Below are positions 2,133-43,440 of a DNA stretch of 64,000 nt, one piece after another (within the stretch, counting starts at the first letter, position 1; each line of letters begins with the position of its first letter). The notes under the pieces were generated by a model. The model made no database searches. It saw only the letters and a program-made list of their open reading frames with translations, and was not told the origin of the DNA. The position numbers were made by a program, and so were the translations under genes. The stretch is from Candidatus Omnitrophota bacterium (GTDB lineage Bacteria > Omnitrophota > Gorgyraeia > Gygaellales > Profunditerraquicolaceae): positions 71,009 to 135,008 of the forward strand of contig JAQUOV010000005.1 in NCBI GenBank assembly GCA_028716965.1, written 5' to 3'.

Positions 2133-2741
2133 TTAAACTCTCCCATAGCCGCTGAAAGGTATTGCGGATGAATCTTCCTTGTCAAAATCCCTTTTCTTGC
2201 GGCTGTCCTTTTCATCATGAGATATCTTTGCGACATGTATTTTAATGATGACCTGCTCTTCAAGGCCCAAGATTTCCTGAATCTTGGATTTAGTGATATC
2301 CTGCAGCCTTGAGGTAAGCTCCGGGATGTTCGCCTCGGAACGCAGGATTATACGCATGTCCACAATAATACCTTTTTTATTTGCCACAACATTTGGCCTT
2401 AATTCTTTTACCTCCGGGATAACACCTGCCAGGCGGCGGATCAAATCCTCCACGGCAGAAAGCGAAATAGTTACCTGCCCGCTTGAGGTAGTAAAAGCAA
2501 TGGTCTTCTCCCTCTGAAAGCGGCCTAAAATAATCTGGGCAAAAGAGAAGCTTATAAGGATTAAAAGTACTCCGGATAGCCCGATAATCAGTCTGGAATT
2601 AGGGCTGGACTGGGCATAGATAAGCAGACTGTTAATATCCTGGGGCATTACCATATTCAATGAAAAAACAATAAAGGTCAAACCGATAACGATAATAATA
2701 ACAGCATAAAACATGATCCCCAGTACGGTAAAGAACTTCAT
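2133..2741 (-). CDS. membrane-anchored Asp23/Gls24-associated protein (AmaP-like), hypothetical
   Basis: Two N-terminal hydrophobic helices followed by a domain resembling the Asp23 fold. It is immediately upstream of an Asp23-family gene. Confidence 0.4.
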   Translation of the reverse strand: MKFFTVLGIMFYAVIIIVIGLTFIVFSLNMVMPQDINSLLIYAQSSPNSRLIIGLSGVLLILISFSFAQIILGRFQREKTIAFTTSSGQVTISLSAVEDLIRRLAGVIPEVKELRPNVVANKKGIIVDMRIILRSEANIPELTSRLQDITKSKIQEILGLEEQVIIKIHVAKISHDEKDSRKKRDFDKEDSSAIPFSGYGRV

Positions 2742-2743
2742 CC

Positions 2744-3097
2744 CTACCCCCTTTCTATACCTTGCACATTTACATTAATATCTTTTACGGAAAGATTGGT
2801 CATCTTCTCTAATGCCTGACGCACATTTTCCTGGACGCGGCAAGCGGTATCCGGGATATTATAGCCATATTTGATAATCACCGGTATCTCCACCTTCACC
2901 TCTTCATTTTTGGATATTTCTACTTTTACGGCAAGAGAGGTTTTCTGCCCGATTAATTCAAGCAAGCTGCTCTTTAAATCTGCCCCCACTTTTTTAACCC
3001 CTTCTATTTCCATGGCGGCAACGGAAGATATGGAGGAGATCACATTCTTATGTATCCTTACGCTGCCAAGCTCATTCCTTGACTCATCACGGTTCAC
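2744..3097 (-). CDS. Asp23/Gls24 family envelope stress protein
   Basis: 117 aa; SSVAAMEIEGVKKV... pattern typical of alkaline shock protein 23 family. Confidence 0.65.
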   Translation of the reverse strand: MNRDESRNELGSVRIHKNVISSISSVAAMEIEGVKKVGADLKSSLLELIGQKTSLAVKVEISKNEEVKVEIPVIIKYGYNIPDTACRVQENVRQALEKMTNLSVKDINVNVQGIERG

Positions 3098-3172
3098 CCC
3101 GCACCTTCTTTCTATTTAATGGATTAAACGTACGGCCTTAATAGCTGCACATCTCGTAGCTGCTTGATTCAT

Positions 3173-4534
3173 CTATTCTCCTTTAGCATCGTTTACTAAG
3201 GTGTCTTGCACAAAATGCGTGGAAATGTCGCCTTTCTTAAATAACGGGTTATCCATTAATTTAAGATGAAAAGGTATGGTAGTTTTAATAGGGGCGATAT
3301 GAAATTCGCTTAATGCCCTGCGCATAGTTTTAATTGCCTCCTGGCGGCTATTGCCGTAAACAATCAGCTTGGCTAGGAGCGAATCATAATAAGAAGGCAC
3401 TTCATACCCGGAGTAAATATGAGTATCGATGCGCACATTTGGCCCCCCGGGCAAAATCAGTGATTCTATCTTGCCCGGAGACGGCATAAAATTATTATCC
3501 GCGTCTTCTGCGTTAATACGGCATTCTATCGCCGCGCCCTTAATCTGTACATTCTCCTGCTGGATCTTCAGTTTCTCTCCGCTTGAGACCCGGATCTGCT
3601 CTTTAATCAAGTCAATACCGGTAACCATTTCGGTAACCGGATGCTCCACCTGGATACGCGTATTCATCTCCATGAAATAGAAATTGTTGGTCTTGGCATC
3701 CAGCAAAAACTCAATAGTGCCGCAACTAAGGTAACCGATGGATTTCATCCCCTTTAAAACCATCTCTCCCAGTTTACGGCGCATCTTACTATCCACTGCC
3801 GGAGAAGGAGATTCCTCAAGCAGTTTCTGGTGCCTCCTCTGGACACTACAGTCCCTCTCTCCCAGCTGCAAGACATGGCCCTGGCGGTCAGCAATAATCT
3901 GAACTTCAATATGGCGCGGCTTTTCAATGTATTTCTCAATGTAGACGCTGGAATTGCCGAAATTCGCTTCTGCCTCGCTCTGCGCGGTCAAAAGGCTGGA
4001 GACCAAAGTTAAATCATTATGGCAAATACGCATCCCCTTGCCTCCGCCTCCGGCAGCTGCCTTGATTATCACAGGATAGCCGATCTCCTTGGCAGTCTTA
4101 AGCGCTTCTTCTTTATTCTTAATGATCGCGCGGCTTCCCGGCACAATAGGCAGGCCTGCCTTCTGCATAGTCGTACGCGCAGCCATCTTATCTCCCATAA
4201 GGCGGATATTCTCCGGGGTCGGGCCGATAAAAGTAATCTTGCAGGATTCGCATATCTCGGCGAAATGCGCATTTTCAGCCAAAAACCCATAACCCGGATG
4301 GATAGCCTCTACATCGGTAATTTCTGCCGCGCTGATAATAGCGGGAATATTCAAATAGCTGCTGCTGGAAGATGCCTGCCCGATACAGATTGCCTCATCG
4401 GCAAAGCGTACGTGCAGGCTGTTACGGTCGGCCTGAGAGTATACGGCAACGGTACGGATACCCATCTCATGACAGGCGCGGATTATTCTTAAGGCGATTT
4501 CGCCCCGGTTGGCAATGAGGATTTTAGAGAACAT
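3173..4534 (-). CDS. accC: acetyl-CoA carboxylase biotin carboxylase subunit
   Basis: [21 protein letters not shown]...ATP-grasp; [14 protein letters not shown] motif; followed by accB. Confidence 0.92.
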
Positions 4535-7944: not shown

Positions 7945-8772
7945 TTAACAGATTGTGACTCCGGCGTAGCCAACAACACTGCTGGTATCTCCGCTGACGT
8001 CGCCGCTGGTTTGATATTTAACTAACCTGCCCTTTTTTGCCCCAAGCAGCCTGGCGGCCCTTAATAAAACCGCTACCGCTGCAAAACCGCACATGGAAAT
8101 ATCTGCCCGCTTAACTACCGCCCCAAGTTTATCTTCATCCAAAGCGGTTATTGCCTCTATCGCCATGGCATCTTTTCTTTCCGCGCTCTTCTGTGATTCA
8201 TAATGTGTCATATCCGAGCTGGCAACAAAGATGATCGAGTTTATAAGATTATTCCTGATAATTACTCCTGCCAGCTCATCCGCAACTATTTTAAGCTTAT
8301 CTAATTCATCATTCTTAATAACAATTGGAACGATCTTAAAATCTTTCTTAAAATACTGCAGCATAGGCAGCTCTACTTCCAATGAATGTTCATCGGTATG
8401 GGCAAGAGTATCGGCCTCCAGATACCTTGAACTGCTCAGGAATAAATTTGCCAGCCGGGAATCAATCTCTACATTGCCCAAGGGAGTCTGCCAATACCCC
8501 CGGACCATCAGGCTAAAGTCCGGTCCGCTTCCATAATGATTAGGCCCTAAAAGGATAACTGTATCTTTGATACTTATCCCCGAAAGCGTCTGGACAGCCA
8601 CACTTCCGGAATAAGCATACCCGGCGTGAGGCAACATGCAACCTATCGCATTCTGCTTTTGCGCAATCCTGCCGCTGCCAAAAGAAGAGATCATCTCAAG
8701 AATAACATCCGGTTGCGATGGATAAAACTGCCCGGCGGCTGAAGGCTTGCGGATATTAAGCTGGTTCATCAT
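7945..8772 (-). CDS. MEMO1 family / AmmeMemoRadiSam system protein B
   Basis: AGQFYP signature at N-terminus, ~275 aa. Confidence 0.8.
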   Translation of the reverse strand: MMNQLNIRKPSAAGQFYPSQPDVILEMISSFGSGRIAQKQNAIGCMLPHAGYAYSGSVAVQTLSGISIKDTVILLGPNHYGSGPDFSLMVRGYWQTPLGNVEIDSRLANLFLSSSRYLEADTLAHTDEHSLEVELPMLQYFKKDFKIVPIVIKNDELDKLKIVADELAGVIIRNNLINSIIFVASSDMTHYESQKSAERKDAMAIEAITALDEDKLGAVVKRADISMCGFAAVAVLLRAARLLGAKKGRLVKYQTSGDVSGDTSSVVGYAGVTIC

Positions 8773-9679
8773 AAAGACGGGATATAAAATTACGGCTCTT
8801 GATTAATTCTTCCGTACTTGCCGGATGATGCGCCTCAATAACCTTTAAAATATTCTTATTTAGATAAGGCTTGAGCATAGAAAAATCTATTTCTCCCTCT
8901 GAAGGCGCAAGGTGGTCCTGGCAACCCAGGATGTCATGCAGATGGACGCCAATCATGCGCTTGCCGTACCTGTCCAAAAAATCCTTATGCCTTGCCAGCC
9001 CCAAATTCTCCATTAATTGGGCATGCCCTGTATCATGCCAATAATAAACCTGGGAATTGCTGAACCTGTCAAGGATAAGTGAGATTTCGTCAATATTTGG
9101 AATCTCGTAGTAATAAAACCGTGTTTCTATCCCCAGCAAAACGGCTTTTATCCGCGCGTAAGCATTCAATTCTTCGATGCTGGCTAAAGCCTGCTCCAGG
9201 AACCTTCCGGATGATAGCGCGCGCTCCCGGATCATCCTCTCCTTCAATTCTGAGGATTCGGCAGAATTATTTTTACCCTGGTTATAAAGGTTGATCAACT
9301 GGCGCGTGTAATCAAAAGCTTCCACCCTGCCGCAATGCAAAACAACCGCCTTAGCCCCTACTCTTTCAGCGGTATCAATGCTGCGTTTTGCATATTTTAC
9401 AGCCAAAAGGCGCTCCTCTTTATCCAGTGATGCCATGGAATAACAATCCGGCAGGGCCTCCGGACGGCTTAAACCATCCGGGATGGGGCAATAATTATGC
9501 AGGCTTTCAATACTGATTTTTAATTTCCTGGCTGAATCGGCGATACCATCCACCATTCCAGAGCTAAGGTTAAAACTTAGCTCTAAAGTTTTAAAGCCAA
9601 GCCGGCTTATTTCAAAGAGCAGCTTTTCCCCGTCATCAAAACGGTAGGCGCTCCAGGAGGTAGAGATCGCTAAAGCCAT
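8756..9679 (-). CDS. sugar phosphate isomerase/epimerase (xylose isomerase-like TIM barrel)
   Basis: TIM-barrel AP-endonuclease-2-like pattern; overlaps memo gene by 17 nt. Confidence 0.6.
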   Translation of the reverse strand: MALAISTSWSAYRFDDGEKLLFEISRLGFKTLELSFNLSSGMVDGIADSARKLKISIESLHNYCPIPDGLSRPEALPDCYSMASLDKEERLLAVKYAKRSIDTAERVGAKAVVLHCGRVEAFDYTRQLINLYNQGKNNSAESSELKERMIRERALSSGRFLEQALASIEELNAYARIKAVLLGIETRFYYYEIPNIDEISLILDRFSNSQVYYWHDTGHAQLMENLGLARHKDFLDRYGKRMIGVHLHDILGCQDHLAPSEGEIDFSMLKPYLNKNILKVIEAHHPASTEELIKSRNFISRLYDEPA

Positions 9680-9929: not shown

Positions 9930-10634
9930 TTATTCAATCTCAAAAGAAATGATAATATTAAAAGAAAGCTGGGGATAATCCAGCTCCTTGGGAAAGCTGG
10001 GGAATGGAGAGGCATCTTTTACGCTCCTTAAGGCAATCGTCTTAAGATAATCGCTTGCAGATGTCCTTGCTTCAACCAGGTGGACGGCTTTAAGAAACCC
10101 CTGGTTTGATATGATAAAAGAAATATATACTTCGCCTGTTTCATTATGAGTATAATTCTGGTAAGCGCTGCGGCGGATCTTCTCCCGCACAATCTGGTAA
10201 TAACTTATGTAACTGGGATTATCGATCCTGGCCATCTCTATTTCCGGCAGTGTAATCCTCTTTTTTATCGCTATAATGTCCGGACTGGAGAAGGATGGCT
10301 TGGCAAGTTCCGGGGATTTATTCGATAAGGCCTTAGGCCCCCTGGAAAGCTCCTCCCTTTCAATATATGGAGGGGGAATACTTTTGTCCATGGCGCTTTT
10401 AACAATCTTTGCATCAAGCCTTAAGAACGGGTCAGGCTTATTAAGCGGCTTTTCCGGTTTCTGCTTAGCCTGGGGCCTGGGCTTTAACTCCTCTTTCTTG
10501 AGGTAACGTACCTTTATCATCTGCTCTTTTGGGGCAGGGACAAAAGGATTCATGCTGGGGCTTTGCAAAAGCAAAACCCCATGCGAAAGGATAGAGGCGG
10601 TAAAAGCAAACACTAAAAGCCGGTTAGAATGCAT
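9930..10634 (-). CDS. TonB-like energy transducer (N-terminal anchor, Pro/Lys-rich spacer, TonB C-terminal domain)
   Basis: KPRPQAKQKPEKPLNKPDP spacer; C-terminal GEVYISFIISNQGFLKAVHLV pattern; adjacent to TonB-dependent receptor. Confidence 0.6.
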   Translation of the reverse strand: MHSNRLLVFAFTASILSHGVLLLQSPSMNPFVPAPKEQMIKVRYLKKEELKPRPQAKQKPEKPLNKPDPFLRLDAKIVKSAMDKSIPPPYIEREELSRGPKALSNKSPELAKPSFSSPDIIAIKKRITLPEIEMARIDNPSYISYYQIVREKIRRSAYQNYTHNETGEVYISFIISNQGFLKAVHLVEARTSASDYLKTIALRSVKDASPFPSFPKELDYPQLSFNIIISFEIE

Positions 10635-10726: not shown

Positions 10727-12583
10727 TTAGAATTCAGCTTTCAGGCCGCCGGTAAAAGAGAAACCGGGCATGGGATAACCCCGTATAACCTGGTACTTAC
10801 GGTTCAAAAGGTTGTCTATGTAAGCAAAACAGCTAACTCCGTGCCTGAATTTCTTTGAGACGCTAATACCCAAAGTAAAGAAATTCTTTACCTTATCGGT
10901 ATTCACGGCGTTACCAAACCTCTGGCCCGTAAATTGGCCTTTCAACTCAACCGTCAAACCGTCATAGCCATGATATCTCAAGCAGGCATCAACTTTATTC
11001 ATCGGTTGATACACAAGGTATTTGTGAGTATCTGCGTCCCTTGCGATTAAGTATGTATAATTAATATCTAAATTAAGGTTATCCGAAATAAACATTTTAT
11101 TTTCAAGCTCTATGCCGTCTATTGCCGCGGAGCTGACATTCTCCGGCCGCCATACCGCGCTTGCATCAGGTGACCATTGTATAAGCTGTTTGAAATCACT
11201 GTGGAAATAAGTAAATCCTGAAACAAGGTATCTATTTATCCTTACCTCAGCTCCCAATTCTTCAGTAACCCCTTTTTCCGGCCTGAGATTAGGATTACCT
11301 TCTTCCCCCCCTGCTAACGCACCCTTATAATAGTAATAATTGGCAGGCCAATATAAGTCGTTAAAAGTAGGGGCACGGAAAGAACGGCTGATCAAACCAT
11401 GGAATTTTATGTTCTCATTGAATTTATAGAGTGCGCTTAAACCCGGATTAAACTGTGTGCCGAAATTGGAGTAATCATCAACCCGGCCGCTAAGATTGAT
11501 ATTGAGTTTCTTGTCAAATAAATCCAAGCGGTTTTCTATGTATCCTGCGCGCACAATATATTCATGTTTTGCGCTGGAGGTAGAGTCATTCATATTTCTC
11601 ACATAATTTAATCCGCATACTATGCCATAATCATCCAATAACTGTTTATCAAGCTGAAGATCAAACCCTCTGACTCTAGTCGTATGTATGTCCTTGGTAT
11701 AAGTAGTAGAATTCTCAATGAATTCCAGCCGGTCGTAATTCTGATAAGCCCTGGCTGATAACCCAGTCTGTTCATCCGGCTTAAAGCTCCATTTAAAATC
11801 AAAGAAACGCTTCAGCGTATTCTGTTTATCGTCTTCATCCGGCCAGCTTGTGGAGCCAGGAGCACCCACCTTACTTGCATAAAAACCGGAGTTAAACCAT
11901 AAATTATTTTCGCTATTAAGATCATACTCCAGTTTAAGATTGCAGTCCTTAGAGTTCAATTGGGAATTTTGACGGAAGCCCTCGGAACTTTCGTATCCGC
12001 CGCTGATAAGATAGCTGAATTTTGAGACCCTTGCTCCATATAGCGCCCGCTCGATATACGTCCTGGCAGTACCAAAGCTTGAATAAATTTCTGCCTTCTG
12101 CCCTTCCTTTGGCGGTTTCTTGGTGATGATATTGACCACTCCTCCCATTGCCGAACTACCATAGAGACTGGAGCCCGGTCCATGCATAACTTCCACCCTG
12201 GATACATTATCTAATGGAATATCGGATAAGTTAACCGAGCCGTCCCTGGGGTTGTTTATCGGCCTGCCATCCATTAAAACCAATACCTGGGAGGCGGTAG
12301 AACCGCGCATTCTTATATCTTTGTTAGCTCCCGGCCCGCCGTAATTACTTATATTGACGGAAGTAAGGTCTGTGAGGGCATCGGATAAATCCTGCGCCCC
12401 GCTTTCCTCCATTTCTTTGGCGGTAACCACATCAACCACGCGGCTGACATCTCCGGATGATTCTTCTATCCTTGAGGGGGTTACTACGATCTTATTTAAT
12501 TCTACATCTTGCGGAAAAGCGATATTTGGCAGGCAAAACAATAACAACCCCAGAAAAATCAGTTTCTTGATAATATTTTTCAT
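10727..12583 (-). CDS. btuB: TonB-dependent outer-membrane receptor, probable vitamin B12 transporter
   Basis: Signal peptide, TonB box (KIVVTPSR), plug plus 22-strand barrel, terminal aromatic residue. It is preceded by a cobalamin riboswitch and neighbours the cob/btu genes. Confidence 0.85.
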   Translation of the reverse strand: MKNIIKKLIFLGLLLFCLPNIAFPQDVELNKIVVTPSRIEESSGDVSRVVDVVTAKEMEESGAQDLSDALTDLTSVNISNYGGPGANKDIRMRGSTASQVLVLMDGRPINNPRDGSVNLSDIPLDNVSRVEVMHGPGSSLYGSSAMGGVVNIITKKPPKEGQKAEIYSSFGTARTYIERALYGARVSKFSYLISGGYESSEGFRQNSQLNSKDCNLKLEYDLNSENNLWFNSGFYASKVGAPGSTSWPDEDDKQNTLKRFFDFKWSFKPDEQTGLSARAYQNYDRLEFIENSTTYTKDIHTTRVRGFDLQLDKQLLDDYGIVCGLNYVRNMNDSTSSAKHEYIVRAGYIENRLDLFDKKLNINLSGRVDDYSNFGTQFNPGLSALYKFNENIKFHGLISRSFRAPTFNDLYWPANYYYYKGALAGGEEGNPNLRPEKGVTEELGAEVRINRYLVSGFTYFHSDFKQLIQWSPDASAVWRPENVSSAAIDGIELENKMFISDNLNLDINYTYLIARDADTHKYLVYQPMNKVDACLRYHGYDGLTVELKGQFTGQRFGNAVNTDKVKNFFTLGISVSKKFRHGVSCFAYIDNLLNRKYQVIRGYPMPGFSFTGGLKAEF

Positions 12584-12604: not shown

Positions 12605-12800
12605 GAGAGTACTTACCTGTCTGCCGTAGGCAGACCTGCGATAGGCGATCGACCGGGCTCATAAATCAGCATGTAGAATGTAGTAGGTAGAATATAAAGC
12701 GAACCTGCATTCTTTATTCTACCTTCTACCTACTGACTTACATTACCGTTGCGAGACAGCGCCTGGGATCATACCAGGACTTCCTTCGCCTATCCGGTTT
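12605..12800 (-). promoter_or_regulatory. cobalamin (AdoCbl) riboswitch in btuB leader
   Basis: Minus-strand read GGAAGUCCUGGUAUGAUCCCAGGCGCUGUCUCGCAACGGUAAUG matches the conserved cobalamin-riboswitch core (compare E. coli btuB GGGAAUCCAGUGCGAAUCUGGAGCUGACGCGCAGCGGUAAGG). A 3' B12-box-like GAGCCCGG...GCAGGUCUGCC follows, then a hairpin (GUCUGCC-UAC-GGCAGAC) next to the RBS/ATG. Confidence 0.75.
12671..12740. repeat. two inverted copies of the TA-rich element inside the btuB riboswitch
   Basis: ATGTAGAATGTAGTAGGTAGAATATAAAG...CTTTATTCTACCTTCTACCTACTGACTTAC; the arms are mutually complementary. Confidence 0.7.
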
Positions 12801-12813: not shown

Positions 12814-13479
12814 TTAAACGTATTTTTTAATATCCAAAAACCAGTGTTTCCCAAAACTCTCTTCTAATACAGGTTGCGTCTCCAGTACCCTGATCGGCTC
12901 CCTGAATAAAGGCCCATCAACCACTAAAGTATGGAACTCTCCTTTCTCCCCGCAGGGGTCAATTTCAGGTTTTAGTTCTTCTATAAACTTCCTGTCCATA
13001 ATCCGGCCCAGCCACTCCTTGCCTAATAGATCGGCTTTGACCGCTACCACCACAGCCTTAAAACCGGAATCAATGATCTCTAAAGCCAATTCCTTGGTAT
13101 CCTTACCCCATAAAGGCATGATCGGCTCTACCTCCGCTTCCCGGCAGAGCGCATCAATCCAATCCTTATGTTCCTGCAGATATATATCTCCAAAAACTAT
13201 TCCCCGGATACCTGCCTTCTTTTGCCAAATGCGAATCAATCTTTTAAATTCCTCGCGATAGGCCTTCCTGGCATCAGGCATTGCCTTTTGCGCCATCGGG
13301 ATTCCAACAAGCTCTGCTTGCCTGAAAATAATCGACGCAAGGAGGCCATGAGAGAGCGACTTTTCCCCTTTAGGATCCGTAAAATTAAATAAGACCGAAA
13401 GATCATGGCCCATAGAAATGGCTTTATAACAGGCAAAACAACTATCTTTACCAGCGCTCCAGAGGCCGGCTACCTTCAT
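12814..13479 (-). CDS. PP-loop ATP pyrophosphatase of the MJ0570/Dph6 (diphthine-ammonia ligase-like) family
   Basis: N-terminal SAGKDS PP-loop, 221 aa; start overlaps cobQ stop by 4 nt (translational coupling); last gene of cob operon. Confidence 0.6.
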   Translation of the reverse strand: MKVAGLWSAGKDSCFACYKAISMGHDLSVLFNFTDPKGEKSLSHGLLASIIFRQAELVGIPMAQKAMPDARKAYREEFKRLIRIWQKKAGIRGIVFGDIYLQEHKDWIDALCREAEVEPIMPLWGKDTKELALEIIDSGFKAVVVAVKADLLGKEWLGRIMDRKFIEELKPEIDPCGEKGEFHTLVVDGPLFREPIRVLETQPVLEESFGKHWFLDIKKYV

Positions 13480-14990
13480 TGTAATCCTCTTTCTATGATC
13501 TTGTGCAATAAACTCATATCAATATTCTCCCTTACCAACTGTGCCAGTTTATCAAACTCTTTATCCGGATTGAAATTCTCTTTTACCGCTAATGCAGGCC
13601 ATCCTTTCTTCATCCTAATCCTGTTCAAGAAATTTCTTCTGAACGCCCCCGCGTCAAATATGCCGTGGATATATGTTCCTAAAATACGGCGATCTTTACT
13701 TATTGCCCCTTCCGTATATCTTATTTCTTTACCATTACATTCAAAAACCTCAAAAAGAGGGTCGCATTTTCCTGTAATCCGGGTTAAGCCGTGGTGGATC
13801 TCGTATCCGGATAATTTTAAACCCGAGATAAGCTCTTTTGCCTCAACTTGCGCCAGGGTTTTATCCAGCTTTAAGCTGGTTTCAACGGGCAGGAGATTTA
13901 ATCCCGGCATCTGCCTGCGCCTTGTTTCCATCCCATGCTTATCGCTTATCCTTCTTCCTAACATCTGATAGCCGCCACAGATCCCCGCCAAAATGACTGC
14001 CTTATCAGATTTAATAATGGACAATATCATCTTTATAAATCCCGATTTCATCAGATATCTTAAATCCGAGATAGTATTCTTTGTCCCGGGGATAATGATC
14101 ACATCCGGCTTGTTTAATTCTTCAGGGGTTTTTGCGTAACGCAAGCGCACATCAGGCTCTTTTTCCAGGGCATCGAAATCCGTAAAATTGGAGATATGCG
14201 GCAGATAGACTACATCAATATTAATCCGGGGGTTTCTTCCGTCAGAGCTATCTTTAAAATTATCCAAAGGCACGGCATCCTCTTCGGCGATCTTTATATC
14301 TTTATAGTAAGGAATTACTCCCAGCACTTTGATACCGGTACGCCTTTCCAGAAAATCTATCCCCGGTTTAAGTAAATTTATATCCCCGCGGAATTTATTT
14401 ACAATTATACCCTTGATCATACTTCTCTCTTTAGGAGTCAATAATGCCAGGGTCCCGACGATCCAGGCAAAGAATCCTCCTTTGTCAATATCGCCTACTA
14501 AAATAACAGGCGCTTTAGCATAAGCAGCCATTTTTAGATTGACGATGTCGTGCGATTTTAAATTTATCTCCGCGGGGCTTCCTGCTCCCTCTATAACCAC
14601 AATTTCATAATCACCAGCTAACTTACGGAAAGAGCTCCTCACTGTCTTAAGAAGCCTGCTTTTATATTTTGTGTAACGCAAAGCATTCATATTGCCAATG
14701 GGTTTTCCCAGGACAATCACCTGCGCCCCCACATCGCTGGTCGGCTTAATCAAAACAGGGTTCATATCTACTGTCGCTTCTATACGAGCGGCCTGGGCTT
14801 GGGTTGCCTGGGCGCGTCCGATCTCACCCTGCTCTCTGGTAACAAATGAATTCAAAGCCATATTCTGGGCCTTAAATGGCGCAACCCTGTAACCCTCCTG
14901 CAAAAAGATCCTGCATAAGGCAGAGACGATCACGCTTTTACCCACCCCTGAACCTGTTCCGCAAACCTGCAATGTTTTGGCTTTCATCAT
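13476..14990 (-). CDS. cobQ: cobyric acid synthase
   Basis: N-terminal CobQ/CbiP ATPase domain (GTGSGVGKS) plus C-terminal glutamine amidotransferase domain. Confidence 0.9.
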   Translation of the reverse strand: MMKAKTLQVCGTGSGVGKSVIVSALCRIFLQEGYRVAPFKAQNMALNSFVTREQGEIGRAQATQAQAARIEATVDMNPVLIKPTSDVGAQVIVLGKPIGNMNALRYTKYKSRLLKTVRSSFRKLAGDYEIVVIEGAGSPAEINLKSHDIVNLKMAAYAKAPVILVGDIDKGGFFAWIVGTLALLTPKERSMIKGIIVNKFRGDINLLKPGIDFLERRTGIKVLGVIPYYKDIKIAEEDAVPLDNFKDSSDGRNPRINIDVVYLPHISNFTDFDALEKEPDVRLRYAKTPEELNKPDVIIIPGTKNTISDLRYLMKSGFIKMILSIIKSDKAVILAGICGGYQMLGRRISDKHGMETRRRQMPGLNLLPVETSLKLDKTLAQVEAKELISGLKLSGYEIHHGLTRITGKCDPLFEVFECNGKEIRYTEGAISKDRRILGTYIHGIFDAGAFRRNFLNRIRMKKGWPALAVKENFNPDKEFDKLAQLVRENIDMSLLHKIIERGLQ

Positions 14991-15006: not shown

Positions 15007-15750
15007 TTAAATCTTCCCCAGCATAAATACCGATAATAGGGTGATTATCTCCGTTAGCTCGATCCCCGCTCCCAAAGTATCACCGGTTATCCCCCCTATT
15101 TTTCTGGTCGAAAATTTTCCTGACGCGTAACTAAAACCGGTAATAATCAATAATATAACCAGCCCTCTTATCTGCCAGGCTATAGATACACAGATAACTG
15201 CCACCACCGAAGAAAGGATAAATATCTTCAGGTTCATACCCTTGATAAATATCCCGGCTTTGCCTTCCTGGCGGGCGTAAGGAAAAAAGAATACGGCAAC
15301 TACAGCCGACCAACGGCTTAAGCAGCACATCAACATAAGTGCATTGGGCTCTAAAGAACTGCTTATTGAAAAAAGCAGGATAATCTTTAACAATATTACG
15401 CTTATCAGGCTTAAAACACCCATCACCCCGGTACGGGAATCACGCATTATCTCAAGCATCTTTTCCATGGGCTTTCCGCTTAAAAATGCATCAGCAGTAT
15501 CCGACAAACCATCCAAATGCAGGCCTCCCGTAATAAAGATCAAAACAACCACGGTAACCACATTCATGGATAGGAAAGGAAAATTCAAAAAAGATAGTAA
15601 AACATTCACCCCTGTAAGAAATAATCCCAGGAGCAGTCCGACAAGCGGAAAATATGCCATTGCCCCTGCCAATCTTTGCTCACCGGCCTCCCTTACCTTA
15701 ATTGGGATGACTGTTAAAAACTGCAGCGCTGACAAAAATGACGCTATCAT
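15007..15750 (-). CDS. cobS: adenosylcobinamide-GDP ribazoletransferase (cobalamin synthase)
   Basis: MIASFLSALQFLTVIPI... polytopic membrane protein, CobS family. Confidence 0.88.
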   Translation of the reverse strand: MIASFLSALQFLTVIPIKVREAGEQRLAGAMAYFPLVGLLLGLFLTGVNVLLSFLNFPFLSMNVVTVVVLIFITGGLHLDGLSDTADAFLSGKPMEKMLEIMRDSRTGVMGVLSLISVILLKIILLFSISSSLEPNALMLMCCLSRWSAVVAVFFFPYARQEGKAGIFIKGMNLKIFILSSVVAVICVSIAWQIRGLVILLIITGFSYASGKFSTRKIGGITGDTLGAGIELTEIITLLSVFMLGKI

Positions 15751-16805
15751 ATATTTTTCTCCGATACATTGGCGCTTTTAAATGTCGCCATCTGGGTAAG
15801 GATCTTAATCGCAGCGTCAGCTAATCCTATTCCAAGGGCCCCACCAGTCCCTTCTCCAAGCCTTAAATCTAAATCCAGCAACGGCCTTAACCCAATATGC
15901 TCAAGAATAATCTTATGGCCCCTCTCCTGGGACTTATGCGCGGCGATCATATAATCTTTTACTTTAGGCTCAATCTTAAAAGCAACCAAAGCAGCAGCCC
16001 CGGATATAAATCCGTCAATAACTACAGGAATTTTATGAGAAGCAGCAGCCAGGATTATACCCGTAAGGCCCGCAATCTCAAATCCGCCTACTTTGGACAA
16101 AACATCAATCGCGTCTGCTGGATCAGGTTTATTAACCAAAAGTGATTTTTTAATAACCTCGATTTTATTCTTTAGCCCCGGCTCATCCAGGCCGGCCCCT
16201 TTTCCTGTAATCTCTTCAACGGGCTTATCGCAAAAAGAAGCGGTGATCGCGCTGGCTGCGGTAGTATTGCCTATACCCATCTCACCGGTCCCGACAATAT
16301 CAATTCCACGCTTAAACTCTTCTTCAAATAAATCTATTCCCCCCTGTATCGCTTTTATCGCTTCCCCTCTTGACATCGCCGGCCCCTTTGCCATGTTTTT
16401 TGTCCCGTAACCTATCTTCCTGACCCGCAGCATTGGGCCAGGCTTAAGCTCTGCGGCCACTCCGATATCCACAACCACTACCCTTGCGCCAACATGTTTT
16501 GCCAATACGTTTATTCCGGCTCCACCTGCGATAAAATTAGAAACCATTTGAGCGGTCACCTCTTTAGGATAAGCGCTTACCCCTTCATCGGTTACTCCGT
16601 GGTCAGCGGCTAAAGTAAAAATAACTTTATTTGTTAATAATGGGTTGGCTTTCCCGCTAATCCCGCAGATTTGTTTTGCCAACTCCTCCAGCCTACCCAG
16701 GCTCCCCAAGGGCTTGGTTAGATTATCTAACCTTACCTGTGTATTTTTTACAATAGCCTGATCAATTCCTGAAATATTCTTGATTACATTATTTATTCTC
16801 TCCAC
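15747..16805 (-). CDS. cobT: nicotinate-nucleotide--dimethylbenzimidazole phosphoribosyltransferase
   Basis: 352 aa; GEMGIGNTT motif. Confidence 0.9.
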   Translation of the reverse strand: MERINNVIKNISGIDQAIVKNTQVRLDNLTKPLGSLGRLEELAKQICGISGKANPLLTNKVIFTLAADHGVTDEGVSAYPKEVTAQMVSNFIAGGAGINVLAKHVGARVVVVDIGVAAELKPGPMLRVRKIGYGTKNMAKGPAMSRGEAIKAIQGGIDLFEEEFKRGIDIVGTGEMGIGNTTAASAITASFCDKPVEEITGKGAGLDEPGLKNKIEVIKKSLLVNKPDPADAIDVLSKVGGFEIAGLTGIILAAASHKIPVVIDGFISGAAALVAFKIEPKVKDYMIAAHKSQERGHKIILEHIGLRPLLDLDLRLGEGTGGALGIGLADAAIKILTQMATFKSANVSEKNI

Positions 16806-17351
16806 TTACCTGCCTCCCTGCCTGCCGGCAGGCAGGCCTTTTATCTTTAACGCTATTCCTGAAACAGTGAAAAACACTTCATCAGCTTTATTGGCAACTA
16901 TCTGATTCGCTCTTCCTGCGATATCGCGAAACTCTCTGCCCAGCTTGTTGGCGGGAACCAATCCCAACCCCACTTCATTAGAAACCAGAATTACTTTTGC
17001 TTTCTTCTTATCTAAAACAAATAATAATTCTTCAATCTTCTTAAGGACCTGCTCTTGCTTATTCCCGGCTAAAACTAAATTTGAAACAAAAAGAGTTAAA
17101 CAGTCGATTAGAATACAATCAAAACTGTCACTCATTTTCCCTAATAATTTTGTCAAATCTTTAGGCTCCTCAAAGGTTGTCCAATGTTTTGGCCTTCCCT
17201 CTTTATGCAGCTTGATCCGCTCCCGCATCTCTTTATCCAAACCCTGACAAGTGGCGATAAAGGCGACTTTTTTGTATTTTTTAGCCAGGCTCAAAGCATA
17301 GCTGCTTTTACCACTGCGCGAGCCTCCCAGTATCAACATTATTCTCTTCAT
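16806..17351 (-). CDS. cobU: adenosylcobinamide kinase / adenosylcobinamide-phosphate guanylyltransferase
   Basis: LILGGSRSGKSSYA P-loop; 181 aa. Confidence 0.9.
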   Translation of the reverse strand: MKRIMLILGGSRSGKSSYALSLAKKYKKVAFIATCQGLDKEMRERIKLHKEGRPKHWTTFEEPKDLTKLLGKMSDSFDCILIDCLTLFVSNLVLAGNKQEQVLKKIEELLFVLDKKKAKVILVSNEVGLGLVPANKLGREFRDIAGRANQIVANKADEVFFTVSGIALKIKGLPAGRQGGR

Positions 17352-17362: not shown

Positions 17363-17460
17363 AGGGACGTTTCTGAACCCAAAGGAAGAACTGTCCCCCT
17401 AGGGGACAGTTCTCCGATTAGCTTAAGAAACGTCCCTGCTTTGAATGGAGAAACGTCCCT
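17363..17460. promoter_or_regulatory. nested inverted-repeat structure at cobC-cobU junction
   Basis: Outer arms AGGGACGTTTCT (17363-17374) / AGAAACGTCCCT (17426-17437, repeated again at 17449-17460), flanking a perfect 27-bp palindrome AGAACTGTCCCC-CTA-GGGGACAGTTCT (17387-17413). Confidence 0.5.
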
Positions 17461-18043
17461 GAATTTGGTTAAATTTCTTTAAGCGAAGTTTGTTTTTGTT
17501 GTATTCCACAACAGTTACGCTTGCCGGAGAAGGAACAAATTTCCAGAAACTCCTGTTTTTCAATATGCCGCTGACAAATATACCGATCACCCCGCCGTGG
17601 CAGACCAGAGCAATGGTTTTACCACGGTTGGCTTGAAGTATTCCTTTTATAGTTCCATCGACCCTCTTTTTAAAAACCCGCATCTGCTCTGCCTGCGGGA
17701 TCCGGGCTTTATAAGGATCAGCCAGCCACTCTTTATAGAGTTTGGGATATTTTTTCAGTACCTCGTCATGTCTTAACCCCTCGAACACCCCGAAATCGAT
17801 CTCCCTTAAATTTTTCACTTTTGTAAAATCGGCCTTTCCAAAAAGTATAGCCCTGGTCTGAAGTGCGCGTTTTCTGTCACTGCAATAGATCTTATCAAAC
17901 CCAAATCCATTAAATCTGTTCCGTAATTGCATAGCTTGGGCTTTACCATGATTGCTTAAACCTATATTCTTGCAGCCGCAGTACCTTTTCTGCTTATTCC
18001 ATTCAGTTACCCCATGGCGGATTAAAATAAGCCTTGTCGTCAT
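17423..18043 (-). CDS. cobC: alpha-ribazole phosphatase (histidine phosphatase superfamily)
   Basis: LILIRHGVTEWN (RHG motif), 206 aa, in cob operon. Confidence 0.8.
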   Translation of the reverse strand: MTTRLILIRHGVTEWNKQKRYCGCKNIGLSNHGKAQAMQLRNRFNGFGFDKIYCSDRKRALQTRAILFGKADFTKVKNLREIDFGVFEGLRHDEVLKKYPKLYKEWLADPYKARIPQAEQMRVFKKRVDGTIKGILQANRGKTIALVCHGGVIGIFVSGILKNRSFWKFVPSPASVTVVEYNKNKLRLKKFNQIQGRFSIQSRDVS

Positions 18044-18831
18044 TACTTCTCTCCCGGGACCAAAGCCACATTGGGCCTGCCTGTGACCGAGTTATCATTA
18101 ACCAAAACAACAGTCTTATAAACTGCCTCAATATTCTGATAAGTTAAAACTTCTTCGGGCTTACCTTCTTTAAAAATGACACCTTGGTCCAGCAAGGCTA
18201 TGCGATTAGAATAAGCACTGGCCAAATTTAGGTCATGCAAGATCATTACAATCGTGAGGCTATTCTTTCGGTTGAGCTTCTTCAACAAATCCAAAGTTTG
18301 TACCTGATGCCCGATATCCAGATGAGCGGTCGGTTCATCCAGGAATAGAAGTTCGGGTTCCTGAGCTAAGGCCCGGGCAATAATTACCCTTTGGCGTTCC
18401 CCGGCGCTCAGCTCATCTATACGTTTATCTTTTAAATTCAAGGTATCGGTTAAAAAAAGCTTTTCCGTGGCGATCTCTATATCTCTTTTGCTTTCAAACT
18501 GCAGCCTCTTTAAATGCGGGATCCTGCCCATCAGGACCAGCTCCATAACCGTAAAAGGAAAACCAATAGATGTATCCTGAGAGACAAAAGCCACCCTCCG
18601 GCAAAACTCCTTTAGATCCATAGCCGAGATATTCTTATCCTTATAGAGTATCTCTCCTTTGCTTAAAGGAAGCACCCGCGTTGCCAAACGCAGCAGGGTG
18701 GTCTTGCCTGAGCCGTTAGGCCCGATAATAACCAGAAAATCTCCTTTCTTAACATCCAAGGATATACCTTTAATGATCTCCTCTTTAAAATACCCGCCGC
18801 ATACATTATTTATTTTCAGTATCTCTTTCAT
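18043..18831 (-). CDS. btuD: ABC transporter ATP-binding protein, BtuD/FecE type
   Basis: Walker A GPNGSGKTT, signature LSAGERQRV, Walker B LLFLDEPT. Confidence 0.88.
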   Translation of the reverse strand: MKEILKINNVCGGYFKEEIIKGISLDVKKGDFLVIIGPNGSGKTTLLRLATRVLPLSKGEILYKDKNISAMDLKEFCRRVAFVSQDTSIGFPFTVMELVLMGRIPHLKRLQFESKRDIEIATEKLFLTDTLNLKDKRIDELSAGERQRVIIARALAQEPELLFLDEPTAHLDIGHQVQTLDLLKKLNRKNSLTIVMILHDLNLASAYSNRIALLDQGVIFKEGKPEEVLTYQNIEAVYKTVVLVNDNSVTGRPNVALVPGEK

Positions 18832-19784
18832 TAAATCCTTTTCCCTTTTTTCAAAAGAATAATAAATACGGGGGCGCCGATTATCGCCGTGATCACACCG
18901 ATGGGAATTTCAACCGGCGCAAAGAGGGTGCGCGATAAAAGATCACAAAGGACCACAAATATGGAAGCAGCAAGACAAGTCACCGGTATTAAGAGTTTAT
19001 GATTCGGGCCCACAACCAGGCGCATCATATGCGGCACGATCAGGCCGACAAACCCGATTATCCCGCAGATGCATATCAGGCTGGCGGTAATTATTGCCGT
19101 GATGACTATCAGTATTTTCTTAATAGCCTGCGTATTTATGCCCAGATGCACAGCTTCCTCCTCGCCCATACTAATAGCATTTAAATCCTGGGCAAACAGA
19201 TAAATACCGCAGATACCCAAGATAACGGCAAGGGCGACTAGAAGCAAAAGTTTATAATCATATACCTGCAAGCTTCCCCATAACCACCAGTTCATCTCAT
19301 GCATTGCCTCGTTACCAAACAAAGATACCAGAAATACTATTATTGATGAAAAGGCAACCGAAACAATTACCCCGGATAAGATCAATGACTTATCCGCGAT
19401 CATCCCTCTTTCTTTCGCCAGGTTGTAAACCAGGATAATACTTGTTATTGCGCCAAAGAAAGCAGCCAGCGGCATATAAAGCCTTGAGAGGCCGAGAATC
19501 ACAGCAGTTACAGCGGCCAGTCCCGCTCCGCTGGAAGTCCCCAGCAGATACGGTTCAGCCAAAGGGTTTCTTAAGATCGCCTGGAGCGCTATACCGGAAA
19601 CCGCCAGGCCGCTTCCTACAAGTATAGCCGCAACTATCCGCAAAAGCCGCAGATTAAAAATAGGCTGGTTATCCTTAAGCAAAAGATCGGTAAACGGGAT
19701 ATTCACCGCGCCTTTGAGCAGGCCGAAGATTACCGCCAGCCCAAGCAGGAAGAATAAAATGCTGATCCTTCTCTTAAAATGCAT
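18831..19784 (-). CDS. btuC: ABC transporter permease, FecCD/BtuC family
   Basis: 317 aa, ~9 TM, FecCD-type sequence. Confidence 0.85.
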   Translation of the reverse strand: MHFKRRISILFFLLGLAVIFGLLKGAVNIPFTDLLLKDNQPIFNLRLLRIVAAILVGSGLAVSGIALQAILRNPLAEPYLLGTSSGAGLAAVTAVILGLSRLYMPLAAFFGAITSIILVYNLAKERGMIADKSLILSGVIVSVAFSSIIVFLVSLFGNEAMHEMNWWLWGSLQVYDYKLLLLVALAVILGICGIYLFAQDLNAISMGEEEAVHLGINTQAIKKILIVITAIITASLICICGIIGFVGLIVPHMMRLVVGPNHKLLIPVTCLAASIFVVLCDLLSRTLFAPVEIPIGVITAIIGAPVFIILLKKGKRI

Positions 19785-19786: not shown

Positions 19787-20617
19787 CTATCCCTTCGGGT
19801 ATAATCTTTTGTACACTTCGCTCAGTCCCTGCGTAATCCTTGGGCCTGGCCTAAGCAGGGTATCAGGATCAATATCGTTAAATACTTGCCCGCTTTTTAC
19901 CGCATCAATTTTATCCCATCCGAAACGCTGCTTGATCAATTTTAAAGATGGCTCCTTATCCATATACGCCATAATAATGCATTGCGGATTCAGGCTGATC
20001 ACTTTCTCGGCACTAATATTACAGTAAGGCCTGGGAAGATCATGGGCAATATTGGTCCCTCCTGCCAAGCTAATCAACTCATCCACAAGAGAACCTTTGG
20101 CGGCAGTCATCAGCGGTTCATGCCAAATCTCTACAAAGACCTTGGCCCTTTCATCTTGAGGAACAAACCTTACCCTGGAGCTTACCGTATTGAGCTCATC
20201 CCTCATCCTCCCGATCAGGGCAATAGCCTCTCCGGATTTCTTGGTCAATTTACCTATATCTGTTATAGAGCCAAACAACTCCTCCATGCTCGTAGGATCA
20301 GAAACATAGACATTAAAATTAAGCTGTCTTAGCTGCGTAACAACCGGTGCCTGCTCAAGGCCGGTGCAAAAAATATAATCCGGTTTTAAAGCAATAATCT
20401 TCTCTATATTTGGATAACTGAAACTTCCGACCCTGGTCTTACTTTTTACTTCCGGTGGATAATTACAATAAGTACTGACCCCCGCAATTTCTCCATCCAG
20501 GCCCAGGGCAAAGAGGATTTCAGTGGTTGACGGAGCAAGGGAGATATAGCGCTGGGCTGCTAAAGCCGTGTTGAAAAATAACCCGATAAATACAAGTAAC
20601 AGGATAATCCTCTTCAT
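19787..20617 (-). CDS. btuF: periplasmic cobalamin-binding protein (TroA-fold, BtuF-like)
   Basis: Signal peptide; ISLAPSTTEILFALGL...ALKPDYIF pattern; first gene after riboswitch. Confidence 0.8.
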   Translation of the reverse strand: MKRIILLLVFIGLFFNTALAAQRYISLAPSTTEILFALGLDGEIAGVSTYCNYPPEVKSKTRVGSFSYPNIEKIIALKPDYIFCTGLEQAPVVTQLRQLNFNVYVSDPTSMEELFGSITDIGKLTKKSGEAIALIGRMRDELNTVSSRVRFVPQDERAKVFVEIWHEPLMTAAKGSLVDELISLAGGTNIAHDLPRPYCNISAEKVISLNPQCIIMAYMDKEPSLKLIKQRFGWDKIDAVKSGQVFNDIDPDTLLRPGPRITQGLSEVYKRLYPKG

Positions 20618-20699: not shown

Positions 20700-20905
20700 C
20701 TACTTTTCTTTACATAGGCAGGTCTTCTGGCTTGAGTTTCAACCTATTTGCTGCGCCTTCCCATGTTGGCATTTGTCAACACAGTGGCTTTGGCTATTTT
20801 GTAGCCAAACCACAGCCTTGCGGCTAGTGGCTTTCTTTTGCAGCTTTCGTCAACTCTTACAGCGGCGGGACCGCATCCGATTAACGCGCAGGCGTTACAC
20901 CCGCG
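20700..20905 (-). promoter_or_regulatory. cobalamin riboswitch in btuF-btuCD-cobC operon leader
   Basis: Minus-strand read contains GGUUAAUCGGAUGCGGUCCCGCCGCUGUAAG. It also contains GCCACUG (twice), UGGGAAGGC, and a near-perfect B12 box AAGCCAGAAGACCUGCC (plus 20716-20735). The 5' end abuts a REP element. Confidence 0.8.
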
Positions 20906-20975
20906 CAATTTGCGCCAGCCTTGCGCACACCAACGCAATTCCTTATTAGCGTTGGGTGCCATTAGCGCGGGGTGT
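20897..20975. repeat. REP-like 79-bp palindromic element, copy 3 (79/79 identical to copy 2)
   Basis: identical string to 7437-7515; immediately 5' of riboswitch 2 on the minus strand. Confidence 0.85.
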
Positions 20976-21182: not shown

Positions 21183-21686
21183 TTAAAGTTCTATGCCTTT
21201 CCTTGCCTTAAATCCCCGCTTATAGTAATGTTTAATTTCATTTATCTGACTGACCAGATCGGCAGATTTAATAATCTGCTTGGGGGCGTAACGGCCAGTT
21301 AATATTAACTCTATGTCCTTGGGAGTCTGGCCGATCAAATCAAGCAGATCCTTAAGGTTAACCAGCTTTAATTGTAAAGCGACATTAATTTCATCCAAAA
21401 TGATTATACGGTATTTCTTGCAAGCAATAATGGCTTTAGCCTTTTTTAATCCATTGCCAGCCAATAAAATATCAATCTGCTTAGGTTTATGCCTAATAAA
21501 ACAATCCCTGCCAAACTGCTCTAGTTTTATATTTTTTATTTTTTTCAGCGCCTTATGCTCACTGCAGCAATACCCTTTAACAAACTGCGCGATATAAACC
21601 TTAAAACCCGCGCCTGCGGCCCTCAAGGCCAGCCCAAGCGCCGCGGTAGTTTTACCTTTACCGTTACCCGTATAGACCTGGATCAT
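21183..21686 (-). CDS. cobO: cob(I)yrinic acid a,c-diamide adenosyltransferase
   Basis: MIQVYTGNGKGKTTAALGLALRAAGAGFKVYIAQFVKG (CobA/CobO/BtuR family); the track ORF's 5' extension to 21752 is unlikely. Confidence 0.88.
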   Translation of the reverse strand: MIQVYTGNGKGKTTAALGLALRAAGAGFKVYIAQFVKGYCCSEHKALKKIKNIKLEQFGRDCFIRHKPKQIDILLAGNGLKKAKAIIACKKYRIIILDEINVALQLKLVNLKDLLDLIGQTPKDIELILTGRYAPKQIIKSADLVSQINEIKHYYKRGFKARKGIEL

Positions 21687-22180
21687 CCAGCAACCGCCTT
21701 CCAGCTTAATAAACCTAAAGAACACAAAGCGGAAATAATAAGCCCAGAACAAATTATGCCGATGATTATAGAAATAAACGCATAGCGAAAACGGATTTTA
21801 AATAGAGATGCCGCGATCACCCCGCTCCAGGCCCCCGTCATAGGAAGGGGTATGGCTACAAAAATAACCAACCCCAAAGCTTCATATCTTTGTACAGCAT
21901 CAGAATTTCTCCTCGTGCGTTCAAAGAGCCAGTCAAAAAAACGCGACCAGATCTTAAACCTTCTTAAGGCCCTGGTAACCGGTTTAAAGAGCAAAAGCGC
22001 CGGAGGGACAATAATAGAGTTGCCTAAAACAGAAACCCAAAAAGCCCTGGGGAGGCTCATCCCCAATGACAAACCTAGGGGGATTGAGCCCCTTAGCTCT
22101 GATACGGGCAAAGCGCCAACAAGCATTACCAGATAATCTTTAGGCAGTCCTCCAAGATAATGCAAAATAGCATTAATCAT
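21683..22180 (-). CDS. small multidrug-export-like membrane protein (COG2426 / Sm_multidrug_ex family)
   Basis: 165 aa, 4 TM, LPVSELRGSIPLG and MTGAWSG motifs. Confidence 0.55.
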   Translation of the reverse strand: MINAILHYLGGLPKDYLVMLVGALPVSELRGSIPLGLSLGMSLPRAFWVSVLGNSIIVPPALLLFKPVTRALRRFKIWSRFFDWLFERTRRNSDAVQRYEALGLVIFVAIPLPMTGAWSGVIAASLFKIRFRYAFISIIIGIICSGLIISALCSLGLLSWKAVAG

Positions 22181-43407: not shown

Positions 43408-43440
43408 CTTTTCCTTTATTCTATTGAGCTCTTGCGTTTT

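Follow-up and report, generated by a model that had tools for sequence, protein, structure and literature searches.

A predicted DUF71-B12-type PP-loop enzyme encoded by the last gene of a riboswitch-controlled B12 salvage operon in an Omnitrophota genome

The DUF71-B12 subgroup of PP-loop ATP pyrophosphatases was defined by de Crecy-Lagard, Forouhar, Brochier-Armanet, Tong and Hunt (Biol Direct 2012, 7:32; PMC3541065). It carries the signature ENGE[F/Y]H where the diphthine-ammonia ligase Dph6 has EGGE/DxE188, with the predicted catalytic Glu188; its genes adjoin btuCDF-type transporters (75 of 102 genes) and cbiB (18 of 102), and a role in B12 salvage, cautiously a CbiZ-like function, was proposed for it. 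According to the same study, bacteria have neither the diphthamide of elongation factor 2 (EF-2) nor dph genes, the EF-2-contacting residues of Dph6 are not conserved in DUF71-B12, and a DUF71 fusion with asparagine-synthase and GAT-II domains is mentioned in the reply to the reviewers. Here we analyze a 64,000-nucleotide stretch of a Candidatus Omnitrophota bacterium (GCA_028716965.1, contig JAQUOV010000005.1, positions 71,009 to 135,008), hereafter the window, in which an open reading frame (ORF) of 221 codons ends an operon for corrinoid uptake and late cobamide assembly. By its sequence, the encoded protein belongs to DUF71-B12, and the conserved neighbourhood of its relatives points to an accessory role in B12 salvage.

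Other described enzymes share the genomic setting or the chemistry proposed for the ORF protein. CbiZ, the adenosylcobinamide/pseudo-B12 amidohydrolase, and CbiR, a cobamide phosphodiesterase, are likewise salvage accessories acting on imported corrinoids and encoded beside transporters or late cob genes, but they are hydrolases that work without ATP and have no sequence or fold kinship to DUF71-B12. CobQ/CbiP and CbiA/CobB use ATP to amidate corrin carboxylates, the type of reaction suggested for the ORF protein; unlike it, they have a MinD/BioD-type ATPase fold joined to a glutamine amidotransferase (GATase), phosphorylate rather than adenylate the substrate, and use glutamine. CbiB/CobD, adenosylcobinamide-phosphate synthase, forms an amide at the f carboxylate of the corrinoid in an ATP-dependent manner, the reaction first proposed for the ORF, but it is an integral membrane protein unrelated to DUF71-B12, with which it co-occurs. 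Finally, in QueC, NadE and LarE a PP-loop enzyme adenylates the carboxylate of a cofactor precursor, which is then attacked by a nucleophile (NH3, or Cys in LarE). The logic is the same, but these enzymes are distant and differ in their C-terminal domains, and the ORF model gives TM-scores below 0.5 to other PP-loop families (Foldseek).

The ORF and the features by which it was classified are located as follows:

12814-13479, (-) strand: the ORF, 221 amino acids from an ATG start, a DUF71-B12-type PP-loop ATP pyrophosphatase gene (PF01902)
13441-13458, (-) strand: codons of the PP-loop S8-A9-G10-K11-D12-S13, read from the sequence
12931-12948, (-) strand: codons of E178-K-G-E-F-H183, the DUF71-B12 signature, read from the sequence and aligned to PF0828 (3rjz) and PH1257
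13476-13479, (-) strand: ATGA, in which the ORF start (ATG, 13479-13477) overlaps the cobQ stop (TGA, 13478-13476)

The ORF is a real gene, with a family match far beyond chance: the Pfam profile PF01902 (Diphthami_syn_2) matched residues 1-220 of the 221, with an E-value of 1.7e-55 and 188.3 bits against a cut-off of 23.2. The original prediction, made from the sequence alone, had described a 221-residue PP-loop ATP pyrophosphatase of the MJ0570/Dph6 family with an N-terminal SAGKDS and a start overlapping the cobQ stop, and had named a Pfam profile search as a check. The end-to-end match, the position of SAGKDS at residues 8-13 and the ATGA overlap confirm this description. A Shine-Dalgarno-like AGAGGA lies just upstream of the start, and S8, G10, K11 and D12 of the PP-loop are kept in 75-79 of 81 aligned homologues. 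An AlphaFold model built from an input of 25 homologues (pLDDT 92.6, pTM 0.90) predicts the two-domain fold of PF0828 and PH1257, which are also its best PDB matches in Foldseek (2d13 for PH1257, 3rk1 for PF0828; TM 0.84-0.85, 31% identity, E ~1e-17). In the model, SAGKDS follows strand 2-6, the placement of an N-type PP-loop.

Within the family, several marks separate the protein from Dph6. Its score against TIGR03679, the Dph6 equivalog model, is 136.3 bits, under the cut-off of 197.3, and its CGEKGEFHT aligns with AGEGGEFET of PF0828 (3rjz/3rk1) and PH1257 (2d13), so that Glu188 is replaced by His183. This histidine is invariant in the alignment (81 of 81 homologues); at the second motif position K, N and S all occur, the ORF having K (EKGEFH) where the published consensus has N. 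In a neighbour-joining tree with two Dph6 sequences as outgroup, drawn from a sample chosen by motif patterns that left out the published cluster-2 and cluster-3 reference sequences, the ORF protein groups with all His-type proteins in a single clade, separated from Dph6 by a long branch. The E-x-G-E-F/Y-H signature and the PP-loop are those of the members described in 2012, such as PF0295 of Pyrococcus furiosus and YP_695745 of Clostridium perfringens, whose genes likewise cluster with btuFCD, cbiB and other late cob genes. From these sequence features, the ORF protein is a member of the already described DUF71-B12 subgroup in an Omnitrophota host, and DUF71-B12 itself can be regarded as a bacterial offshoot of the archaeal and eukaryotic Dph6 that was recruited to corrinoid salvage. 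The statement in the original prediction that this family had never been linked to B12 was mistaken, because the signature carried by the ORF and its B12 clustering were published in 2012 (PMC3541065).

Taken at face value, the database name would make the protein a genuine diphthine-ammonia ligase. NCBI does call P0001, a protein from a Candidatus Omnitrophica metagenome-assembled genome (MAG) that is 100% identical to the ORF protein, and its relatives 'diphthine--ammonia ligase', and the top PDB and NCBIfam matches of the ORF are Dph6 proteins. With Dph6/MJ0570/PF0828/PH1257 (EC 6.3.1.14) the ORF protein shares the fold, the PP-loop, the histidine H44/H48, the GE.GE loop and, presumably, the first half-reaction, the ATP-dependent adenylation of a carboxylate. 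True Dph6 was nevertheless rejected on the equivalog score (136 against 197 bits) and on the His at the catalytic-site position of Glu188. With the absence of EF-2 diphthamide and dph genes from bacteria (PMC3541065) and the position of the ORF in a B12-riboswitch operon added, this reading has next to no chance of being correct. The ORF thus adds another bacterial protein to those named 'diphthine--ammonia ligase' in databases though the host cannot make diphthamide.

The operon in which the ORF stands is given below from its head, followed by the adenosyltransferase gene that lies upstream of the riboswitch:

20700-20949, (-) strand: cobalamin riboswitch at the operon head (RF00174, 50.1 bits, E 1.6e-9)
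19787-20617, (-) strand: btuF, with a signal peptide (ORF translation and label from the hidden Markov model, HMM)
18831-19784, (-) strand: btuC (ORF translation, HMM label)
18043-18831, (-) strand: btuD (ORF translation, HMM label)
17423-18043, (-) strand: cobC-type histidine phosphatase (PF00300, E 2.3e-52, and operon position)
16806-17351, (-) strand: cobU (PF02283, E 1.1e-60)
15747-16805, (-) strand: cobT (PF02277, E 3e-136)
15007-15750, (-) strand: cobS (PF02654, E 7.9e-56)
13476-14990, (-) strand: cobQ/cbiP, cobyric acid synthase (NF001989, 628 bits against a cut-off of 273; TIGR00313, 532 bits; GATase_3 and CbiA domains)
21183-21752, (-) strand: cobO/btuR corrinoid adenosyltransferase, upstream of the riboswitch (PF02572, E 1e-59)

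The order is riboswitch-btuF-btuC-btuD-cobC-cobU-cobT-cobS-cobQ-ORF, the ORF being given as the tenth and last gene, and the genes upstream of cobQ (cobS, cobT, cobU, cobC, btuD, btuC and btuF) are closely packed, overlapping or separated by very short gaps. In the syntenic loci L003 and L088 the btuFCD counterparts were typed as Peripla_BP_2, FecCD and ABC_tran. This arrangement shows the ORF to be transcribed last in a btuFCD-cobCUTSQ operon controlled by a cobalamin riboswitch, and hence co-regulated with corrinoid uptake and late cobamide assembly. The earlier description of a cobU-cobT-cobS-cobQ operon closed by the ORF holds for the last gene and fails for the first, since the operon begins with the riboswitch and btuFCD-cobC. 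Its inventory of cobU, cobS, cobT, cobC, cobO and cobQ was borne out by Pfam for cobS, cobT, cobU, cobC and cobO and by NF001989 for CobQ, and so was the lack of cbiB/cobD and cbiZ: neither HMM nor tblastn searches found CbiB, CbiZ or a dedicated CobD in the whole 64-kb window. The only CobD-like match, at 32526-33716, was set aside as a generic aminotransferase (28% identity) in an amino-acid biosynthesis cluster.

Conservation of this linkage was assessed through a scan with one genome per species, which returned 593 confirmed relatives, with 80 loci kept; the neighbourhood counts refer to 76 non-redundant loci with a callable ORF and to a span of five genes. Genes for B12 transport or biosynthesis lie at most five genes away in 52 of the 76 loci, and an unambiguous cob gene in 38. 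The phyla represented include Omnitrophota, Planctomycetota, Chloroflexota (Dehalococcoidia), Nitrospirota, Desulfobacterota, Bacteroidota, Kiritimatiellia, Bathyarchaeia and Methanosarcinales. Among the immediate neighbours (n = 128), the most frequent Pfam families are Peripla_BP_2 (15), CobT (12), TonB-dependent receptors (9) and CobQ (7), followed by CobU and CobS (5 each), DUF6580, Asn_synthase, His_Phos_1, nitroreductase and radical SAM (4 each) and CbiB (3); at least one of the four nitroreductase neighbours is a BluB-like domain fused to CobT. The gene arrangement of the window recurs at orthologues with 69% and 80% identity, and at a 64%-identical orthologue the operon is rearranged to cobC-cobU-cobT-cobS-cobQ-DUF71-btuF-btuC-btuD-cobO with the cobQ-DUF71 pair intact. 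The linkage of the DUF71-B12 gene to B12 genes is thus strongly supported as conserved rather than accidental, and a random distribution relative to cob genes, which the original prediction had proposed to examine across related genomes, is ruled out.

Translational coupling of the ORF to cobQ had also been predicted. A 4-nt overlap with the upstream gene is found as well in L001, L003, L005, L006, L088, L089 and L090, and the partner in this start/stop overlap is cobQ at five loci, cbiB at two and cbpB at one. The coupling itself therefore stands, but cobQ is only one of its partners: the overlap goes with the DUF71 gene, whichever gene precedes it.

Our preferred reading, to which we assign a probability of roughly 0.5, is that DUF71-B12 is an ATP-dependent, adenylate-forming accessory enzyme for a corrinoid carboxylate in B12 salvage and not a substitute for CbiB; its substrate we infer. 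As in every characterised relative, the enzyme would bind ATP, adenylate the carboxylate and release pyrophosphate, after which ammonia or an amine would displace AMP to leave an amide. All the ATP-contacting elements are kept in the ORF, namely the PP-loop, H44 (equivalent to H48 of PF0828) and the G-E-x-G-E loop (alignment; roles from PMC3541065). The substrate would be a carboxylate of an imported or incompletely amidated corrinoid, and the enzyme would work beside CobQ, completing or repairing side-chain amidation early in salvage as an accessory to the canonical pathway. Carboxylates are available on corrinoids only in cobyric acid, in incompletely amidated precursors and in deamidated cobamides, and it is for this reason that amidation beside CobQ is preferred, as a weakly supported choice.

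Several points weigh against this assignment. To our knowledge, complete cobamides and cobinamide have no free carboxylate, and the proposed substrate is therefore hypothetical. The DUF71 gene also stands in many loci without cobQ, such as cobU-DUF71-bluB/cobT-cobS-cobC in Bacteroidota and DUF71-cobT-cobS in Bathyarchaeia, so cooperation with CobQ cannot be general. In several anaerobes DUF71 is coupled or fused to CbpB and to an asparagine-synthase-like protein, and the substrate could be a peptide or small molecule; the published co-occurrence with CbiB and anti-correlation with bacterial CbiZ suggest a CbiZ-like role instead (PMC3541065). Full-text literature searches found no later experimental work on DUF71-B12, and we found no solved structure of any DUF71-B12 member among the PDB matches. 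The idea of a corrinoid salvage or remodelling enzyme, already present in the original prediction, is plausible; it is the hypothesis published in 2012 and not a new one.

Gene fusions bear on the nature of the substrate. The fusion protein P0121 (L033, 4962-6398) combines DUF71-B12 with a BtuF-like domain (Peripla_BP_2) lacking a signal peptide, and stand-alone signal-less BtuF-like proteins of 262-264 amino acids, 57-66% identical to this domain, also exist (for example P0123 and P0124), which suggests a cytoplasmic corrinoid carrier. A second BtuF-like fusion, P0122 from Elusimicrobiota, is 43% identical and has a hydrophobic segment between its domains; it could be a membrane-anchored or read-through form. 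The fusion to a BtuF-like domain supports a corrinoid as the substrate of DUF71-B12. Two other fusions join DUF71 to a SPASM domain corresponding to the end of CbpB (P0131) and to an asparagine-synthase-like protein (P0135). The cbpA-cbpB pair is found in the same operons as DUF71-B12 at L088, L089, L090, L012, L008, L015, L025, L026 and L033, and was located in the Omnitrophota relatives (TIGR04164/TIGR04163) at:

L088, 5148-5309 and 5325-6647: cbpA and cbpB
L089, 8405-8557 and 8586-10004: cbpA and cbpB
L090, 6881-6997 and 7075-8499: cbpA and cbpB

These pairs lie within riboswitch-controlled cob operons. CbpA is a short precursor peptide with the conserved core IAYRLKC..GLSH; against the TIGR04164 cut-off of 35 it scores 59 bits in L090 and 17-19 bits in L088 and L089, whose peptides can be aligned with that of L090. 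CbpB, its radical-SAM/SPASM partner, scores 474-514 bits against TIGR04163. The stop of cbpB and the start of DUF71 overlap in L089; in L088, the 80%-identical relative, cbpA-cbpB is inserted between cobU and cobT. An asparagine-synthase-like protein with a zinc ribbon often stands alongside the pair. Our literature search returned no paper on the cbpA-cbpB pair.

The original prediction had proposed that the ORF protein adenylates the f-carboxylate of cobyric acid and attaches aminopropanol or aminopropanol phosphate, as a non-orthologous replacement of CbiB. Such chemistry is compatible with an adenylate-forming amide ligase, the product of CobQ would need such a step, the kinase activity of CobU could phosphorylate a cobinamide product, and the 'short' operons (the window, L088, L003 and L001) keep cobQ and DUF71 with no cbiB or cobD within reach. 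However, DUF71 and cbiB do not stand in for one another: they share a cluster in 10 of the 76 loci, and of the 12 loci with a nearby cobQ, 8 have a nearby cbiB too. Around the genes for P0071 (named Smithellaceae) and P0056 the operon reads cbiR-cobU-cobT-cobS-cobD-cbiJ-cobQ-cbiB-DUF71-btuFCD-cobO; cbiB lies directly upstream of DUF71 in L005, L006 and L015, and in the gene calls of L005 and L006 its stop and the start of DUF71 overlap by 4 nt; and the Omnitrophota relatives L089, L007 and L090, whose flanking synteny is that of the window, have cobD, cobQ, cbiB and DUF71 together. These shared operons rule out CbiB replacement as a general function. The positive co-occurrence with CbiB reported in 2012 (PMC3541065) and the frequency of DUF71 in loci without cobQ speak against it as well. 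P0020 (short operon, L003/L004) and P0056 (long operon with cobD and cbiB, L006) each come with their own DUF71-B12 copy, and both are listed with a longest contig of 704,390 bp, with a tetranucleotide correlation of r = 0.94 between their loci. Judging by the 704,390-bp match, they probably represent one Omnitrophota genome with two B12 operons and two paralogues, so that a canonical cbiB/cobD pair elsewhere in the MAG of the window is quite possible. CbiB replacement is accordingly very unlikely. Also unlikely, though less so, is a restricted variant in which CobQ and DUF71-B12 of the short Omnitrophota operons form a CbiB-independent route on imported corrinoids, either by re-amidating, and so repairing, the side chains of deamidated cobamides or cobinamide or by ligation of aminopropanol to cobyric acid; in the latter version, an adenylating ligase could join free aminopropanol to cobyric acid and the CobU kinase could complete the path. 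If true, this route would add a new enzymatic step to B12 salvage and give the family, unassigned since 2012, its first assigned activity.

Under the proposal of 2012, DUF71-B12 would be a CbiZ analogue that begins remodelling or salvage: from cobinamide or pseudo-cobalamin taken up by the cell it would cut off the aminopropanol or nucleotide arm, possibly through ATP-driven activation of the f-amide, to yield cobyric acid for CbiB. It draws on the published adjacency to btuCDF and cbiB, on the observation that CbiB-encoding genomes have CbiZ or DUF71-B12 with few exceptions, and on a strict anti-correlation with CbiZ in bacteria (PMC3541065). In our sample DUF71 typically lies at the boundary between cob genes and btuF (15 btuF adjacencies), the same kind of gene position that the CbiZ and CbiR papers report. 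Yet the residues for ATP-dependent adenylation are all conserved and no PP-loop amidohydrolase is known, an objection already raised by a reviewer in PMC3541065, and the window and three related short operons have no nearby cbiB to use the cobyric acid. In L026, a Nitrospirota MAG, CbiZ (PF01955, E 8.5e-50) is encoded directly downstream of DUF71-B12 (2876-3541 and 3502-4257), which is one counter-example to the strict bacterial anti-correlation, and a true CbiR heads the long operons of L005 and L006 (L005 copy at 2579-3394, NF041277, 259 bits). Since CbiZ and CbiR can thus share an operon with DUF71-B12, its relation to the known remodelling enzymes is not one of simple alternatives, and we consider a CbiZ-like activity doubtful. 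Somewhat more doubtful is a substrate other than a corrinoid, either a carboxylate on a CbpA-derived peptide or small molecule (the product of CbpB) or a lower-ligand or nucleotide precursor, whose product would feed cobamide metabolism. The nine cbpA-cbpB operons, the cbpB-DUF71 overlap of L089 and the SPASM and asparagine-synthase-like fusions favour it, as do the action of the ancestral Dph6 on a protein-bound carboxylate and the frequent adjacency of DUF71 to cobT, including BluB-CobT fusions. However, a radical-SAM/SPASM gene is near in only 7 of the 76 loci, the fusion to a BtuF-like corrinoid-binding domain speaks for a corrinoid, and HMM and tblastn searches of the 64-kb window turned up no cbpA, cbpB or asparagine-synthase-like gene.

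The family comprises two clades, the type found in the window and a second, paralogous clade that often provides a second copy in B12 loci of Bacteroidota. Second-copy paralogues were located at:

L012, 10251-10943: second-copy paralogue
L068, 11463-12185: second-copy paralogue
L069, 18015-18743: second-copy paralogue
L072, 9980-10711: second-copy paralogue

C176 and H183 are near-invariant in both clades, and C14, H104 and C112 co-vary: they occur together in the clade of the window, and most members of the second clade have S/A, L and L (or M/T) at the three positions instead. This pattern suggests that the three residues may belong to a shared metal, cobalt or catalytic site. A four-cysteine metal or Fe-S site was considered and rejected, with C17 kept in only 23 of 81 homologues.

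B12 salvage has been linked to this PP-loop family since 2012, and the ORF opens no new topic. The earlier interpretation is partly supported, being right about a B12-linked PP-loop enzyme and wrong about novelty and CbiB replacement. Relative to the 2012 study, in which Omnitrophota were not sampled, the analysis adds the coupling to cobQ in operons without cbiB (here without cobD as well), one operon with cbiZ and two with cbiR, together with the recurrent linkage or fusion to CbpA/CbpB, to an asparagine-synthase-like protein and to a signal-less BtuF-like domain; neither the cbpAB linkage nor the cbiZ adjacency is in PMC3541065. The corrinoid-salvaging bacteria and archaea in which DUF71-B12 is widespread shape the exchange of B12 within communities, and the constraints from the Omnitrophota loci can guide the choice of substrate for a first DUF71-B12 assay.

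Beyond the ORF, in the direction of transcription, the window contains further features related to corrinoid uptake:

12640-12794, (-) strand: probable divergent riboswitch of the adenosylcobalamin (AdoCbl) type in the spacer between the ORF and btuB (RF01482, 28.4 bits against a gathering threshold of 50, E 0.0024)
10727-12583, (-) strand: TonB-dependent receptor, btuB-like (Plug and TonB_dep_Rec_b-barrel)
9930-10634, (-) strand: TonB-like protein, by weak matches below the cut-off (TonB_2 in Pfam, E 0.004; tonB_Cterm in NCBIfam, E 2.9e-5)

An AP_endonuc_2 gene at 8756-9679 on the (-) strand, three genes past btuB, was considered as a CbiR, which would have accounted for a remodelling route without cbiB. 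It was rejected at 26.5 bits against the NF041277 cut-off of 105, and in relatives it is syntenic with the housekeeping genes rpsU and Memo/AmmeMemoRadiSam.

The spacer between the ORF and the TonB-dependent receptor measures 230 nt. The btuB riboswitch that the original prediction placed there falls below the RF01482 threshold, but the element folds far better than shuffled controls (z -4.3) and is conserved in the 80%-identity relative L088, where the closing stem shows compensatory changes (AUAGGCG/CGCCUAU against AUAAAUG/CAUUUAU); it is probably a real, divergent riboswitch. At the operon head, an RF00174 riboswitch was found in all seven related operons scanned, with 74-112 bits over ~170-205 nt. 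The copy in the window, at 50 bits over 250 nt, scores lower and is longer than these seven, and may carry an insertion or be unusually divergent. Within the operon, a 14-bp GC-rich hairpin with a weak T tract (17385-17415, (-) strand) occupies the 71-nt gap between cobC and cobU, where it might serve as an internal attenuator or RNA-stability element.

A motif of ~45 nt, AAGTCAGTAkGTAGnAGGTAGAATrTAGAATGCAGG, which contains TAGAAT boxes, occurs in three intergenic regions of the window, at 12655-12750, 43400-43495 and 52665-52750, all on the (-) strand. The copy in the btuB leader makes up an inverted-repeat hairpin within the putative riboswitch, an insertion absent from the closest relative, L088. 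Its core ends ~40 nt (at 43.4 kb) and ~30 nt (at 52.7 kb) upstream of start codons, and the motif may be a promoter-like or small mobile element.

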